Part shown: positions 809 through 6,886 of the stretch, in pieces
How positions within the stretch are numbered: the first letter of the stretch is position 1
How the letters are laid out: each line of letters starts with the position of its first letter
Assembly (NCBI RefSeq): GCF_050920415.1
Contig: NZ_CP169309.1
From: Escherichia coli
GTDB taxonomy: Bacteria > Pseudomonadota > Gammaproteobacteria > Enterobacterales > Enterobacteriaceae
Length of the DNA: 64,000 bases
Direction: 5' to 3' (one strand)
The notes under the pieces: generated by a model
Told to the model about the DNA's origin: nothing
The model's input: the letters and a program-made list of their open reading frames with translations, nothing else
The model's database searches: none
Position numbers and translations under genes: made by a program

Positions 809-2473
809 ATGTGTTCAATTTTTGGCGTATTCGATATCAAAACAGACGCAGTTGAGCTGCGTAAGAAAGCACTCGAGCTGTCACGCCTGATGCGTCATCG
901 TGGCCCGGACTGGTCCGGTATTTATGCCAGCGATAACGCCATTCTCACCCACGAACGTCTGTCCATTGTTGACGTTAACGCGGGGGCGCAACCTCTCTAC
1001 AACCAACAAAAAACTCATGTGCTGGCAGTAAACGGTGAAATCTACAACCACCAGGCATTGCGCGCTGAATATGGCGATCGTTACCAGTTCCAGACCGGGT
1101 CTGACTGTGAAGTGATCCTCGCGCTGTATCAGGAAAAAGGGCCGGAATTTCTCGACGATTTGCAGGGCATGTTCGCTTTTGCCCTGTACGACAGCGAAAA
1201 AGATGCGTATCTGATTGGTCGCGACCATCTGGGGATCATCCCACTGTATATGGGCTATGACGAACATGGTCAGCTGTATGTGGCCTCAGAAATGAAAGCC
1301 CTGGTGCCGGTATGCCGCACGATTAAAGAGTTCCCGGCGGGGAGCTATTTGTGGAGTCAGGACGGCGAAATCCGTTCTTATTATCACCGCGACTGGTTCG
1401 ACTACGATGCGGTGAAAGATAACGTGACCGACAAAAACGAGCTGCGTCAGGCACTGGAAGATTCCGTTAAAAGCCATCTGATGTCTGATGTGCCTTACGG
1501 TGTGCTGCTTTCTGGTGGTCTGGATTCCTCAATTATTTCCGCGATCACCAAGAAATACGCCGCCCGTCGCGTGGAAGATCAGGAACGCTCTGAAGCCTGG
1601 TGGCCGCAGCTGCACTCCTTTGCTGTAGGTCTGCCGGGTTCACCGGATCTGAAGGCAGCCCAGGAAGTGGCAAACCATCTGGGCACTGTGCATCATGAAA
1701 TTCACTTCACTGTACAGGAAGGTCTGGACGCCATCCGCGACGTGATTTACCACATTGAAACCTATGATGTGACCACTATTCGCGCTTCAACACCGATGTA
1801 TTTAATGTCGCGTAAGATCAAGGCGATGGGCATTAAAATGGTGCTGTCCGGTGAAGGTTCTGATGAAGTGTTCGGCGGTTATCTTTACTTCCACAAAGCA
1901 CCGAATGCCAAAGAACTGCATGAAGAGACGGTGCGTAAACTGCTGGCCCTGCATATGTATGACTGCGCGCGTGCCAACAAAGCGATGTCAGCCTGGGGCG
2001 TGGAAGCACGCGTTCCGTTCCTCGACAAAAAATTCCTTGATGTGGCGATGCGCATTAACCCACAGGATAAAATGTGCGGTAACGGCAAAATGGAAAAACA
2101 CATCCTGCGTGAATGTTTTGAAGCGTATCTGCCTGCAAGCGTGGCCTGGCGGCAGAAAGAGCAGTTCTCCGATGGCGTCGGTTACAGTTGGATCGATACC
2201 CTGAAAGAAGTGGCGGCGCAGCAGGTTTCTGATCAACAGCTGGAAACTGCCCGCTTCCGCTTCCCGTACAACACGCCGACGTCCAAAGAAGCGTATCTGT
2301 ACCGGGAGATCTTTGAAGAACTGTTCCCGCTTTCGAGCGCCGCAGAGTGCGTACCGGGCGGTCCTTCCGTCGCGTGTTCTTCCGCTAAAGCGATTGAGTG
2401 GGATGAGGCGTTCAAGAAAATGGACGATCCGTCTGGTCGTGCGGTTGGTGTTCACCAGTCGGCGTATAAGTAA
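809..2473 (+). CDS. asnB: Asparagine synthetase B (glutamine-hydrolysing)
   Basis: 554-aa ORF starting MCSIFGV (N-terminal Cys nucleophile), SGGLDSS PP-loop motif. Confidence 0.95.
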   Translation: MCSIFGVFDIKTDAVELRKKALELSRLMRHRGPDWSGIYASDNAILTHERLSIVDVNAGAQPLYNQQKTHVLAVNGEIYNHQALRAEYGDRYQFQTGSDCEVILALYQEKGPEFLDDLQGMFAFALYDSEKDAYLIGRDHLGIIPLYMGYDEHGQLYVASEMKALVPVCRTIKEFPAGSYLWSQDGEIRSYYHRDWFDYDAVKDNVTDKNELRQALEDSVKSHLMSDVPYGVLLSGGLDSSIISAITKKYAARRVEDQERSEAWWPQLHSFAVGLPGSPDLKAAQEVANHLGTVHHEIHFTVQEGLDAIRDVIYHIETYDVTTIRASTPMYLMSRKIKAMGIKMVLSGEGSDEVFGGYLYFHKAPNAKELHEETVRKLLALHMYDCARANKAMSAWGVEARVPFLDKKFLDVAMRINPQDKMCGNGKMEKHILRECFEAYLPASVAWRQKEQFSDGVGYSWIDTLKEVAAQQVSDQQLETARFRFPYNTPTSKEAYLYREIFEELFPLSSAAECVPGGPSVACSSAKAIEWDEAFKKMDDPSGRAVGVHQSAYK

Positions 2474-2486
2474 GAAATGCGGTACT

Positions 2487-2514
2487 GCCCCGGAGAAATC
2501 CGGGGCTGTTTCAG
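2487..2514. terminator. Putative bidirectional intrinsic terminator between convergent asnB and the 145-aa ORF
   Basis: GC hairpin gccccggagaaatccggggc 14 bp after the asnB stop, immediately before the minus-strand ORF stop. Confidence 0.5.
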
Positions 2515-2952
2515 TTATTGAGCTGCTTGTTGATTCTGATATGCAGTAAGGAAATGTTCCGGGTTTGCCACATCACTGTTTGACAACTCATCACTGTAGG
2601 CCACCGACCAGGTCGCCTGCTCATCCGGAATATGCAGGCTGCCATTCCCCTCTTTCAGGCGTAATAACTCAAAAGATTTGCCCTTAATTACGGCGGTATA
2701 GGATTTTTCACCTTCCTGTAATGCTTTCACTTTACAGCGAAAAATCTGGCCATCGATGTCATTATCAACATGCGATACCTGAATGAGGGCTTCATTAGAG
2801 GCTTTCGGCCCTATCCGCATCATCCACACCACAGCGCCTTCCTGCCCACGATAGCCAAAAACATATTTACCGATTTCCGGTTTGACCGTATCGGCAAACG
2901 CAGATTGCATAAGTAATAACGCACCCATCAGCGCCGTCATAAAACGCAGCAT
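2515..2952 (-). CDS. Hypothetical secreted protein, 145 aa, with N-terminal Sec signal peptide
   Basis: ORF with GAGGGA Shine-Dalgarno about 5 nt upstream of the ATG; N-terminus MLRFMTALMGALLLMQSAFA then DT (AXA cleavage motif); no family recognised. Confidence 0.6.
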   Translation of the reverse strand: MLRFMTALMGALLLMQSAFADTVKPEIGKYVFGYRGQEGAVVWMMRIGPKASNEALIQVSHVDNDIDGQIFRCKVKALQEGEKSYTAVIKGKSFELLRLKEGNGSLHIPDEQATWSVAYSDELSNSDVANPEHFLTAYQNQQAAQ

Positions 2953-3215
2953 AGTATTCCCTCAATAAATCGCCTGAAGTGGTAGCAGAGATGCAGGCGT
3001 AGCGATCCCTGCCCTGTCCTGTTGCAACGGGCCAGTATTTCATAGATTAATTTCCTACCACTATTGTTGAATTCCGAATTTCATCCTGTATGACAAAAGA
3101 ATGGCTGTAGGGTGGGAAAAAAACACAAAGTAAACAATAATTGACGAATATAGCGCCACGCTGTTCGCAACCTAACCAAACAGTCACTTTCGAGCAATTT
3201 TCCTTGAAAAAGAGG

Positions 3216-3244
3216 TTGACGCTGCAAGGCTCTATACGCATAAT
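3216..3244 (+). promoter_or_regulatory. Sigma70 stable-RNA promoter of the tRNA operon
   Basis: ttgacg, 17-bp spacer, cataat, then GC-rich discriminator gcgcccc, about 40 bp upstream of the first tRNA. Confidence 0.55.
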
Positions 3245-3283
3245 GCGCCCCGCAACGCCGATAAGGTATCGCGAAAAAAAGAT

Positions 3284-3360
3284 GGCTACGTAGCTCAGTT
3301 GGTTAGAGCACATCACTCATAATGATGGGGTCACAGGTTCGAATCCCGTCGTAGCCACCA
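3284..3360 (+). tRNA. metT: tRNA-Met (elongator, CAU)
   Basis: 77-nt sequence ggctacgtagctcag...tcgtagccacca with encoded CCA; anticodon loop ctCATaa. Confidence 0.93.
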
Positions 3361-3368
3361 TCTTTTTT

Positions 3369-3453
3369 GCGGGAGTGGCGAAATTGGTAGACGCACCAGA
3401 TTTAGGTTCTGGCGCCGCAAGGTGTGCGAGTTCAAGTCTCGCCTCCCGCACCA
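3369..3453 (+). tRNA. leuW: tRNA-Leu (long variable arm)
   Basis: 85-nt sequence gcgggagtggcgaaattggtaga...gcctcccgcacca. Confidence 0.9.
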
Positions 3454-3476
3454 TTCACCAGAAAGCGTTGTACGGA

Positions 3477-3551
3477 TGGGGTATCGCCAAGCGGTAAGGC
3501 ACCGGTTTTTGATACCGGCATTCCCTGGTTCGAATCCAGGTACCCCAGCCA
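3477..3551 (+). tRNA. glnU: tRNA-Gln (UUG)
   Basis: 75-nt tggggtatcgccaagcggtaaggcaccggtttTTGataccgg...ccagcca. Confidence 0.9.
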
Positions 3552-3585
3552 TCTTCTTCGAGTAAGCGGTTCACCGCCCGGTTAT

Positions 3586-3660
3586 TGGGGTATCGCCAAG
3601 CGGTAAGGCACCGGTTTTTGATACCGGCATTCCCTGGTTCGAATCCAGGTACCCCAGCCA
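3586..3660 (+). tRNA. glnW: tRNA-Gln (UUG)
   Basis: Identical 75-nt copy of the preceding tRNA-Gln(UUG). Confidence 0.9.
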
Positions 3661-3675
3661 TCGAAGAAACAATCT

Positions 3676-3752
3676 GGCTACGTAGCTCAGTTGGTTAGAG
3701 CACATCACTCATAATGATGGGGTCACAGGTTCGAATCCCGTCGTAGCCACCA
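3676..3752 (+). tRNA. metU: tRNA-Met (elongator, CAU)
   Basis: Identical 77-nt copy of the first tRNA-Met. Confidence 0.93.
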
Positions 3753-3800
3753 AATTCTGAATGTGTCGAATGCGTTCGGCAAATTCACAAACCAATTTGT

Positions 3801-3875
3801 TGGGGTATCGCCAAGCGGTAAGGCACCGGATTCTGATTCCGGCATTCCGAGGTTCGAATCCTCGTACCCCAGCCA
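3801..3875 (+). tRNA. glnV: tRNA-Gln (CUG)
   Basis: 75-nt tggggtatcgccaagcggtaaggcaccggattCTGattccgg...ccagcca. Confidence 0.9.
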
Positions 3876-3912
3876 ATTTATTCAAGACGCTTACCTTGTA
3901 AGTGCACCCAGT

Positions 3913-3987
3913 TGGGGTATCGCCAAGCGGTAAGGCACCGGATTCTGATTCCGGCATTCCGAGGTTCGAATCCTCGTACCCCAGCCA
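3913..3987 (+). tRNA. glnX: tRNA-Gln (CUG)
   Basis: Identical copy of the preceding tRNA-Gln(CUG). Confidence 0.9.
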
Positions 3988-3995
3988 CATTAAAA

Positions 3996-4019
3996 AAGCT
4001 CGCTTCGGCGAGCTTTTTG
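3996..4019 (+). terminator. Intrinsic terminator of the tRNA operon
   Basis: aaaaaagctcgcttcggcgagcttttt hairpin with flanking A and T runs. Confidence 0.75.
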
Positions 4020-4035
4020 CTTTTCTGCGTATATT

Positions 4036-4130
4036 CAATGTCGAATGCGATGTTGACACGTCTTATTCTTCAAAGTCGGATGCGACGCTGACGCGTCTTA
4101 TCCGACCTACGGTTGGCATGCATTCGGCAA
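4036..4130. repeat. REP/BIME-like palindromic element
   Basis: ggatgcgacgctgacgcgtcttatccgacctac resembles the E. coli REP consensus; flanked by the inverted pair tcgaatgcg / gcattcggcaa. Confidence 0.55.
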
Positions 4131-4140
4131 TGTTGTAAGG

Positions 4141-5316
4141 CTACAACCCTAACGCATATTTCAGCGCCTGCCGTTTCAATACGCCAGCACGCTCCGCCGC
4201 CATTAACCCGAGATTACGCATAAAACGCAGTGGCGGCAGATTATTGCTGAATCCGGCATAAAACAGATCCATACCGCTTTGCATAATGAAGTTATCCGCC
4301 ATACGCCGCATCTGGTAACGCTTGAGGACAGGATAACTGGCCCACGCTTCACCGTAGCTGCGGGCATTCACCAGAACGTCAATCAGCGCATCAACATCGC
4401 GATAACCAAGATTCACCCCCTGCCCCGCCAGCGGATGAATGGTGTGCGCCGCATCGCCCACCAGCGCCAGCCCTGGTTGCACATACTGCAACGCATGGCG
4501 GCGCGTCAGCGGAAACGCACCAGCGGCGAGTGGCATCACGTACCCAAGACGCGACGGGAAATGCTTCGCGATTTCCGCCTGTAGCTGCGCCATATTCATA
4601 TTCTGCAACTGGCGAATGCGTGCCGGAGAGTCATACCACACCAGCGATGCCCAGTTATCAAACAACGGCAGAAACGCACGAGGTCCATCCGGGGTAAATT
4701 GCTGCCAGGTGCTGTCGCCGGGATCGTTCTCACACTGTACGCTAATCAACATACACGACTGTGCATACTGCCAGGCATGAACGCCAATTCCCGCCATTTG
4801 CCGCACCTGCGAATTTGCACCGTCAGCGCCAATCACCAGCTTCGCCTGGATCACTTCGCCCCCCTTCAGTTCCAGTTCCTGAAGATCATTATGGCGATGC
4901 AGAGCAATCAGTGAGCCTGGCACACGTAACGTTACTTTCGGATGCGCCTCCAGCGCCTGCCACAGCGCCTGTTGCAGGACAGTGTTTTCCACCATATAGC
5001 CAAGCAACGGCAGCTTCAATTCGGCTGCATCAAACACCACATGCGCCGTTTCCCACTCCCACGTTTCCAGTCTGCGATAAGGATGGCAACGCATGGCCTG
5101 TACCGCGTCCCAGACGCCTAAACCTTTAAGCAATGATACCGAAGCCGCACTAATCGCCGAGATCCGCACATCCGGCTGGCTGTCAGCGACAAACGGCGCA
5201 GGTTCTGCGTGCTCGATTACCGTTACCGAAAATCCGTGCTGTGCCAGTCCCAGCGCCAGTGCGCCGCCGACCATTCCTCCGCCGACAATGGCAATTTCCG
5301 TTGGTTGATTTGTCAT
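4141..5316 (-). CDS. ubiF: 2-octaprenyl-3-methyl-6-methoxy-1,4-benzoquinol hydroxylase (flavin monooxygenase)
   Basis: GGGMVGG FAD-binding motif; 391 aa if started at MTNQPTEIAIVGGG (track ORF is 2 codons longer). Confidence 0.9.
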   Translation of the reverse strand: MTNQPTEIAIVGGGMVGGALALGLAQHGFSVTVIEHAEPAPFVADSQPDVRISAISAASVSLLKGLGVWDAVQAMRCHPYRRLETWEWETAHVVFDAAELKLPLLGYMVENTVLQQALWQALEAHPKVTLRVPGSLIALHRHNDLQELELKGGEVIQAKLVIGADGANSQVRQMAGIGVHAWQYAQSCMLISVQCENDPGDSTWQQFTPDGPRAFLPLFDNWASLVWYDSPARIRQLQNMNMAQLQAEIAKHFPSRLGYVMPLAAGAFPLTRRHALQYVQPGLALVGDAAHTIHPLAGQGVNLGYRDVDALIDVLVNARSYGEAWASYPVLKRYQMRRMADNFIMQSGMDLFYAGFSNNLPPLRFMRNLGLMAAERAGVLKRQALKYALGL

Positions 5317-5461: not shown

Positions 5462-6886
5462 ATGACCAAAAAACTCCATATTAAAACCTGGGGCTGTCAG
5501 ATGAACGAGTACGATTCATCGAAGATGGCCGATCTGCTGGATGCCACCCACGGCTATCAACTGACCGACGTGGCGGAAGAAGCGGATGTGCTGCTGCTGA
5601 ACACCTGCTCAATCCGCGAGAAGGCTCAGGAAAAAGTCTTCCATCAGTTGGGTCGCTGGAAACTGTTAAAAGAGAAGAATCCAGACCTGATTATCGGCGT
5701 CGGCGGCTGCGTGGCATCGCAAGAAGGCGAGCACATTCGCCAGCGCGCCCACTATGTTGATATTATTTTTGGGCCGCAAACACTGCACCGTCTGCCGGAG
5801 ATGATCAACTCCGTACGCGGCGACCGCAGCCCGGTTGTAGATATCAGCTTCCCGGAAATCGAGAAGTTTGACCGTCTGCCGGAACCGCGTGCCGAAGGAC
5901 CAACCGCGTTTGTCTCCATCATGGAAGGCTGCAATAAATATTGCACCTACTGTGTGGTGCCTTACACCCGTGGTGAAGAGGTAAGCCGTCCTTCCGACGA
6001 TATTCTGTTTGAGATTGCCCAGCTTGCGGCTCAGGGCGTGCGTGAAGTCAACCTGCTCGGTCAGAACGTGAACGCCTGGCGTGGTGAGAACTACGACGGC
6101 ACCACCGGATCGTTTGCCGATCTGCTGCGTCTGGTTGCGGCGATCGACGGGATCGATCGTATTCGCTTTACCACCAGCCATCCGATCGAATTCACCGACG
6201 ATATCATCGAAGTGTACCGCGACACGCCGGAGCTGGTGAGCTTCCTGCATCTGCCGGTTCAGAGCGGTTCCGATCGCATTCTAAACCTGATGGGACGTAC
6301 CCACACGGCGCTGGAGTACAAAGCGATCATCCGTAAATTGCGTGCGGCGCGTCCTGATATTCAGATCAGTTCTGACTTCATTGTCGGCTTCCCGGGCGAA
6401 ACCACCGAAGACTTCGAAAAAACGATGAAGCTGATTGCCGACGTCAATTTCGACATGAGCTACAGCTTTATCTTCTCCGCTCGTCCGGGTACACCAGCCG
6501 CCGATATGGTTGATGATGTTCCGGAAGAAGAGAAGAAGCAGCGTCTGTATATTCTGCAAGAGCGCATTAATCAGCAAGCGATGGCATGGAGCCGCCGTAT
6601 GCTCGGCACCACCCAGCGTATTCTGGTAGAAGGTACATCGCGTAAGAGCATCATGGAGCTTTCCGGTCGTACTGAAAATAACCGCGTGGTTAACTTCGAA
6701 GGCACGCCGGATATGATCGGTAAATTCGTCGATGTAGAAATTACCGACGTCTATCCGAACTCTCTGCGCGGTAAAGTGGTGCGAACTGAAGATGAAATGG
6801 GTCTGCGCGTGGCAGAAACACCGGAATCGGTGATTGCCCGTACCCGCAAAGAAAATGACCTGGGCGTGGGTTATTATCAGCCGTAA
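5462..6886 (+). CDS. miaB: tRNA-i6A37 methylthiotransferase (radical SAM)
   Basis: 474 aa; CxxxCxxC radical-SAM cluster (CNKYCTYC) and C-terminal TRAM region. Confidence 0.95.

Follow-up and report, generated by a model that had tools for sequence, protein, structure and literature searches.

An ancestral gene for a predicted exported beta-barrel protein between asnB and the metT tRNA operon, deleted from most Escherichia coli genomes

We analyzed the spacer between asnB and the tRNA operon that begins with metT in a 64,000-nucleotide stretch of Escherichia coli DNA (contig NZ_CP169309.1, assembly GCF_050920415.1; hereafter the window). Genes in this part of the window run from nagD, at its start, through asnB, the spacer and an operon of seven tRNA genes to ubiF. 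The spacer contains an open reading frame (ORF) on the minus strand for a protein of 145 residues, which is very probably a real, vertically inherited gene, ancestral in Escherichia and its relatives. Its product has a Sec-type export signal and a predicted barrel fold, and belongs to an uncurated family; the gene has been deleted from about 82% of complete E. coli genomes and is frameshifted in one sub-lineage. The ORF and the elements beside it are as follows:

809 to 2473, plus strand: asnB, whose stop codon ends at 2473
2487 to 2506, no strand assigned: GC-rich hairpin of 8 bp, lying between the convergent stop codons of asnB and the ORF, which are 41 nt apart
2515 to 2952, minus strand: coding sequence of the 145-residue precursor, with an ATG start and a TAA stop at 2515-2517 (from the ORF list)
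2518 to 2892, minus strand: mature domain of 125 residues (13.9 kDa), predicted to form an eight-stranded beta-barrel with a short helix and a C-terminal helix
2893 to 2952, minus strand: signal peptide (residues 1-20, MLRFMTALMGALLLMQSAFA), with predicted cleavage at AFA-D, then DT
2958 to 2963, minus strand: Shine-Dalgarno sequence GAGGGA, 5 nt before the ATG and unchanged in an alignment of six taxa

The initial annotation, made from the letters of the DNA, had described the ORF, its Shine-Dalgarno sequence and its signal peptide, and all three were recovered by direct reading of the sequence and from the hydropathy profile, as were the convergence on asnB and the hairpin between the two stop codons. 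In an identical genome, the Prokaryotic Genome Annotation Pipeline (PGAP) placed a coding sequence at the same site. The ribosome-binding block TTATTGAGGGAATA shows no variation across the six genera or species aligned. The predicted signal peptide has a basic residue (R3), a 12-residue hydrophobic core (Kyte-Doolittle maximum 2.47) and the cleavage sequence QSAFA-D. The sequence thus combines a positive n-region, an h-region and an AxA at -3/-1 with no Cys near the site, as expected of Sec export and signal peptidase I. All close orthologues keep MQSAFA, and a lipobox was found in none of 78 homologues.

The coding sequence also behaves as a gene in comparisons between species. We computed the ratio of non-synonymous to synonymous substitution rates (dN/dS, Nei-Gojobori) between the window and the alleles of E. 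albertii, E. marmotae and an assembly labelled Salmonella, and obtained 0.07-0.10, compared with 0.01-0.03 for asnB in the same pairs. Within E. coli, the window and strain EC958 differ by 14 synonymous and 3 non-synonymous changes (ratio 0.05). With values of 0.05-0.10, the gene is under purifying selection; together with the confidence of the structural model described below, this bears out the view of the initial annotation that the gene is genuine. Its composition had been called native. It does not look foreign, but its GC content (46.8%, and 47.9% at third codon positions, GC3) is somewhat below that of its neighbour asnB (52.3% and 58.0%).

One intact allele is very divergent. E. coli O22:H8 strain 154 (L017) has only 88.7% nucleotide identity to the window, with a dS of about 0.7, and lacks 12 bp upstream of the gene (window 3103-3114). 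Its protein resembles those of alleles labelled Salmonella enterica (P0019 and P0020), which suggests either introgression or mislabelling of the "Salmonella" assemblies.

As stated in the initial annotation, the E. coli K-12 reference has a shorter spacer without a gene. The ends of metT (697133) and asnB (697513) in MG1655 leave 379 bp with no annotated feature, compared with 810 bp in the window. We compared the spacer with 5426 complete E. coli genomes using megablast and found it in 5424 of them. It was at least 80% covered in 985 genomes, and in the remainder about 46-47% was covered, in two pieces. With the 431-bp segment alone as query, matches were obtained in exactly 985 of the 5426 genomes, always as one chromosomal copy. 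Carriers include the O7:K1 strain CE10 (100% identical) and sequence type 131 (ST131) strains such as EC958 (97.4%), while MG1655, EcN, E2348/69 and O157:H7 are non-carriers. The initial annotation had presented the gene as unrecognised, which does not hold: in the genomes inspected, RefSeq and PGAP already list it as a "hypothetical protein" where it is present (WP_000943486.1 for this window, WP_000943484.1 for ST131).

The differences among E. coli genomes fall at the following positions:

2515 to 2603, minus strand: 3' remnant kept by K-12-type genomes, consisting of the last 29 codons and the stop; residues 117-145 are matched by tblastn in deletion-type genomes
2604 to 3034 (equivalently 2599 to 3029), no strand assigned: 431-bp segment missing from K-12-type genomes, with direct repeats GGCCA at 2599-2603 and 3030-3034
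2700 to 2704, no strand assigned: run of five T (A5 on the coding strand), where loss of 1 bp causes a frameshift at about codon 83 in one E. coli sub-lineage

In short alleles, the alignment runs to window position 2603 and resumes at 3035. The missing segment holds codons 1-116, the Shine-Dalgarno sequence and 82 bp upstream, and the hairpin by asnB is left in place together with the remnant, whose peptide ...SNSDVANPEHFLTAYQNQQAPQ can still be read in MG1655. The junction was identical, and the 3' remnant kept, in all six short alleles inspected (MG1655, TUM22766, EcN, E2348/69, GF4-3 and GPEC1337). Outside E. coli, the gene order miaB-ubiF-tRNAs-ORF-asnB-nagD-nagC is common to Pseudocitrobacter (full-length orthologue, 70% identity), the Salmonella-labelled assemblies, E. 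albertii, Enterobacteriaceae G50 and E. marmotae; homologues were found in E. ruysiae too. Because syntenic orthologues exist in other taxa and K-12 retains a remnant, the long allele is the ancestral form and K-12 carries a derived scar. The short allele is a single 431-bp deletion between 5-bp GGCCA repeats, present in about 82% of complete E. coli genomes. The content is thus lineage-variable, as initially proposed, but the variation comes from loss and not from extra DNA in this strain.

The deletion junction, although identical each time, stands on at least four different flanking haplotypes. The left flank of GPEC1337 is that of the full-length window, including the C at 2523, 76 bp from the junction, and the flank of E2348/69 matches that of the full-length EC958. 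Either an old deletion has been reshuffled by recombination, or deletion has recurred at the 5-bp microhomology.

A frameshift is a second, independent route to the loss of the gene. The frameshifted sub-lineage is 99.5% identical to the window, and its protein is cut at about 87 residues. All four genomes checked combine the loss of one T at 2700-2704 with the substitution C2746A, and PGAP flags these copies as "frameshifted" pseudogenes. The 430-nt variant occurred in about 11 of 60 evenly spaced carriers; extrapolating from this sample, an intact copy is kept in roughly 15% of complete genomes. An ORF that is broken or absent in close relatives had been named beforehand as a sign against the gene, and close relatives do show exactly this. 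The deletion in about 82% of genomes and the frameshift nevertheless mean that the gene is dispensable in E. coli, not that the ORF is spurious.

The signals around the gene are less clear than its coding sequence. Two further elements lie upstream of the ORF, followed by the tRNA operon:

3032 to 3085, minus strand: non-coding block of about 55 bp upstream of the ORF, conserved in the six-taxon alignment (columns about 250-305) and retained in K-12
3216 to 3244, plus strand: sigma-70 promoter of the tRNA operon metT-leuW-glnUW-metU-glnVX (TTGACG, 17 nt, CATAAT; 10 of 12 matches in the promoter scan)
3284 to 3985, plus strand: the tRNA operon metT-leuW-glnU-glnW-metU-glnV-glnX, seven tRNAs

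The tRNA operon promoter is divergent from the ORF and is a neighbour of the gene, not part of it. The conserved block is a candidate promoter or operator region of the ORF, judged by its position and conservation, and inspection by eye upstream of the ORF revealed no convincing sigma-E-like motif. In a terminator scan, the hairpin at 2487-2506 scored as the asnB terminator on the plus strand; on the minus strand its folding energy is -19 kcal/mol (z = -3.7), but the U-tract after it is poor. We take it to be the terminator of asnB, possibly acting in both directions. In MG1655 (L024 2375-2476; 696 kb region), the deletion joins an upstream ATG to the out-of-frame remnant, creating a 33-codon ORF (MKYWPTVMSCQTV...) downstream of the conserved block. 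In K-12, transcription from the retained block might still yield a short RNA that terminates at the hairpin by asnB.

Close homologues of the protein (55-99% identity) were found in Enterobacteriaceae only. A profile built from them and searched against 1.84 billion cluster representatives retrieved 201 clusters at E<=1e-3 and 102 at E<=1e-10, the family clusters being defined at the 50% identity level. Nearly all family members are 135-160 residues long with an N-terminal hydrophobic leader, and they share the consensus RPE[VI]G.Y.KAY.G.EG..V...R.GP....EAL[VI]Q..G[IV]DH.WDG.I.K ... Y ... G ... L ... G.LYLPG ... Y...LS....PEHFLT.YL.Q. The E. coli protein matches the family profile over its full length, and the family motifs map on its sequence. 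Structural relatives in AFDB50 (TM 0.85-0.93) come from Atlantibacter, Pantoea, Yersinia, Brenneria, Xanthomonas, Pseudomonas, Rhizobium, Bacteroidota and Myxococcus; most are labelled "uncharacterized", and a few carry automatic labels such as "Lipoprotein" or "Secreted protein".

The initial annotation could not assign the protein to a family, and neither could we. None of 79 members matched Pfam-A at E<=1e-3, and the E. coli protein had no match even at E<=10; NCBIfam gave nothing above noise for 11 members, PHROGs gave no match, and sequence and profile searches of the PDB found no relative. PADLOC found nothing on the barrel and matched only the cytoplasmic cyclase and TIR halves of rare fusions. 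The name DUF4367, carried in UniRef by the Pseudocitrobacter orthologue (P0028), was discarded because Pfam DUF4367 gave no match even at E<=0.1. A literature search for the accessions or for the asnB/metT intergenic region found no papers. Overall, we found no family member with a curated model or an experimental study, and the gene is already in RefSeq.

The genomic context of the family is not uniform. The gene stands alone, and the neighbourhoods of five distant homologues have no partner in common: one homologue lies between genes for a TonB-dependent receptor and a phosphotransferase system (PTS) EIIBC transporter, another is flanked by genes with FtsH and pterin-binding (FolP-like) domains, and another follows a class-I (Val-type) tRNA synthetase gene. 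On a metagenomic enterobacterial contig, a homologue with 55% identity (L008 5001-5447) sits at another locus, flanked by genes whose products have amidase (AmiC-like) and MltA domains. A tRNA-Met gene (6237-6313) lies next to it, as one does next to the E. coli gene, which may be a coincidence or reflect a common insertion preference.

Rare members have other architectures, including a tandem duplication and forms of about 270 residues with an extra C-terminal part. In rare fusions, the barrel is joined through a hydrophobic, putative transmembrane stretch (identified by eye) to TIR or class-III nucleotide-cyclase domains; the cyclase half has weak PycC-like matches in PADLOC. Examples of fusions and duplications are P0074, P0174, P0119, P0054 and P0101. 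A yeast protein carries the barrel domain at its C-terminus, fused to a receiver-like region (also by eye). The neighbourhoods of the cyclase and TIR fusions were uninformative.

A structure prediction for the mature domain had been proposed with the initial annotation. With a 16-sequence alignment, AlphaFold2 gave a mean predicted local distance difference test (pLDDT) score of 82, and the mature sequence with a 79-sequence alignment gave a pLDDT of 94.2 and a predicted TM score (pTM) of 0.87. In the latter model, eight up-and-down beta-strands are followed by a one-turn helix and a C-terminal helix of 14 residues; in the prediction from 16 sequences, the signal peptide forms an N-terminal helix of low confidence that is detached from the fold. 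In the fold-resemblance list, the highest score went to the accessory barrel of the D-aminopeptidase 1ei5 (9.0), followed by Brucella PliC 4mir (8.8), Salmonella PliC 3oe3 (8.6), a group at 7.5 (5hal, PhiA 7dpy and Pab87 2qmi), Neisseria ACP 6gq4 (6.5) and E. coli MliC 2f09 (5.7), with avidins, outer-membrane barrels and designed barrels at about 6-7. Sequence identities in this list are 2-17%, and the matches represent fold-level resemblance of a predicted model to a very common topology. Alignments to PliC chains (85-97 residues) cover about 81-85 residues, which places the barrel in the PliC size class and not in that of lipocalins.

Conserved positions in the family concentrate in alternate loops: GxEG (b1-b2), G-[IV]-D-[HN]-x-[WI]-D-G (b3-b4), [DN]-G (b5-b6) and LYLPG (b7-b8). 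Given the up-and-down strand order of the model, and on strand order only, these four loops should lie at one end of the barrel. We suggest that the mature protein would be a soluble periplasmic binding protein that contacts its partner through these loops. The partner would most likely be a peptidoglycan hydrolase of the lysozyme type that attacks the envelope and that the protein might inhibit, in parallel with the similarly sized barrels PliC, MliC and Neisseria ACP. MG1655 has annotated genes for Ivy and MliC, with which such an accessory protein would be redundant, and it would for that reason be easily lost. A binding role with a lysozyme-type hydrolase as partner, proposed by analogy, is tentative and less likely than not. 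As a whole, a real ancestral gene with a periplasmic binding role is the best explanation we have, and we put its probability at about 0.5.

The proposed role can be compared with what is known of these inhibitors. The MliC/PliC family is defined by an eight-stranded barrel, a disulfide linking strands b1 and b8 (PMC5507604), and an SGxxY motif (SxSGAxY) in loop 4 that enters and plugs the lysozyme active site (PMC5507604, PMC8334348). Neisseria ACP is a lysozyme inhibitor that was identified from fold similarity alone and lacks the MliC/PliC motifs (PMC5507604). Brucella PhiA has the same fold, also without the motif, and in vitro it inhibited neither its proposed target nor hen lysozyme (PMC8334348). 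Since ACP inhibits and PhiA showed no inhibition in vitro, and both lack the motifs, the two cases bracket the predictive worth of fold similarity.

The family studied here resembles PliC/MliC (3oe3, 4mir, 2f09), PhiA (7dpy) and ACP (6gq4) in being small envelope proteins encoded by stand-alone genes and exported through Sec (the export being predicted here). As in PliC/MliC, the model shows an eight-stranded antiparallel barrel of about 85-100 residues, and the conserved residues gather in loops and not along the barrel. Unlike PliC/MliC, the present family has RPE[VI]G as an extra segment at the N-terminus and a helix of 14 residues at the C-terminus, and it also occurs in many free-living bacteria. 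Ivy (inhibitor of vertebrate lysozyme) is likewise a stand-alone periplasmic protein of similar length, the periplasmic location being predicted in our case. The accessory barrels of D-aminopeptidase (DAP, 1ei5), Pab87 (2qmi), the C-terminal domain of Rv0907 (4whi) and 5hal are fused to a catalytic penicillin-binding fold, whereas the protein here is a free-standing secreted one with conserved loops and a helix of its own; identity to these accessory barrels of the DAP, penicillin-binding protein and beta-lactamase fold is 6-12%.

Several observations weigh against the proposed reading. All of the support for the mechanism is at the level of the predicted fold, a level at which PhiA gives a discouraging precedent. 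SG..Y is not conserved across the family, being present in 7 of 79 members, while S.SGA.Y, SGSGA and Y...TKG occur in none. Beyond the first 25 residues, Cys is absent from 47 of the 79 members and present once (C73) in the E. coli protein, so a b1-b8 disulfide cannot be conserved. Pfam MliC, which we take to be PF09864, matched none of the 79 members and was not even among the weak matches, and hhalign against E. coli MliC gave a probability of 6%, with only the signal peptides aligned. Free-living bacteria of soil and water account for many family members, and the fusions to signalling domains point to a module for sensing or for ligand binding. For the gene itself, the consensus sigma-70 scan found no promoter for the ORF and none in 3032-3085.

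Membership in MliC/PliC was rejected: the barrel is the only one of the three family features present, the motif, disulfide and profile tests having failed, and the protein is therefore not filed there. Ivy was rejected as well. A submitter had given this label to a Rosenbergiella member in AFDB, and we consider it wrong: hhalign against E. coli Ivy gave 0.4%, and Pfam Ivy, presumably PF08816, matched none of the 79 members.

The main alternative, possible though doubtful, is that the protein is a calycin-like periplasmic carrier or sensor, whose barrel or conserved acidic loop binds a small molecule, a lipid or a metal ion and not a protein. An eight-stranded barrel followed by a C-terminal helix, as predicted here, is the lipocalin-type layout, which in the calycins encloses a ligand cavity, and Foldseek matched FABPs, lipocalin-type PGD synthase, avidins and nitrophorin at E values of 0.02-0.1. 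In the TIR and nucleotide-cyclase proteins, the domain follows a hydrophobic stretch and is predicted to lie outside the cytoplasm, and in the yeast protein it is fused to a receiver-like region; both point the same way. Members of the enterobacterial clade have D-N-D-I-D-G in the b3-b4 loop, which fits DxDxDG, a calcium-binding pattern. However, only 8 of the 79 members have DxDxDG, which therefore cannot define the function of the family, and Pfam lipocalin, avidin and FABP matched none of the 79.

It is unlikely that the gene is an evolutionary relic whose ancestral function has become neutral or slightly costly, so that it is now decaying and the intact copy in the window is unimportant. 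The two independent inactivations, by deletion and by frameshift, would fit such a history, as would a GC3 below that of the neighbours and the lack of a recognisable sigma-70 promoter. The retained copies are nevertheless under purifying selection, both within E. coli (window and EC958) and between species, the Shine-Dalgarno sequence is invariant and the upstream block is conserved across genera. The selection signal makes a purely decaying gene less likely.

That the gene is a small insertion or mobile cargo gained by the lineage of this strain is almost certainly wrong: all that speaks for it is a spacer longer than that of K-12 and a slightly reduced GC content, whereas the last 29 codons are still in place in K-12, five other taxa have syntenic orthologues, there are no phage matches, flanking repeats or integrase, and all eight matches in a plasmid collection were typed non-mobilizable, so that the K-12 remnant and the synteny rule out an acquired insertion or mobile element. 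Apart from one distant homologue from Xanthomonas sacchari, on a 508-kb record, the plasmid-collection matches all represent the E. coli locus, in records of 0.28-4.9 Mb.

A more far-reaching reading, which we regard as improbable, is that the protein founds a new, phylum-spanning class of periplasmic beta-barrel proteins with a defined role in envelope defence or sensing. Were it true, the class might be a fifth type of peptidoglycan-hydrolase or lysozyme inhibitor, acting through the G-[IV]-D-H-x-W-D-G and LYLPG loops, or else an extracytoplasmic ligand-sensing module reused by TIR and cyclase signalling proteins; it would have been overlooked because K-12, O157 and most model strains have deleted the gene. 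The direct importance of the finding is modest, as this is a conserved hypothetical gene and a curiosity rather than a new kind of system. It does illustrate that K-12-centred annotation hides ancestral E. coli genes, the asnB-metT spacer being a deletion scar with 29 codons. The intact gene is present in clinically dominant lineages (ST131/EC958 and O7:K1 CE10) and missing from most others, which makes its presence or absence a clean natural marker and the gene itself a candidate for an accessory factor of the envelope. The confident structural model and the defined set of motifs could seed a new family entry for a family that has no Pfam or NCBIfam model.

Minor observations concern the surroundings of the gene. 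In the laboratory-developed, K-12-like strain TUM22766 (L002), the operon has six tRNA genes and not seven; it lacks one tandem tRNA-Gln copy, presumably lost when the glnV and glnX repeats recombined. Strain GF4-3 (L005 2771-3253) has an IS621 (IS110-like) transposase gene directly 3' of the tRNA operon, in the usual place of ubiF. An Rfam scan of 2300-4200 returned only tRNAs and sub-threshold noise; a repetitive extragenic palindromic (REP)-like element at 4039-4107, downstream of glnX, matched naRNA4 in Rfam with 34 bits, below the gathering score of 59.5. The Salmonella-labelled locus (L010 2261-2836) has an extra ORF of 191 residues between ubiF and the tRNA operon, which has no Pfam match and is not present in the Escherichia loci.

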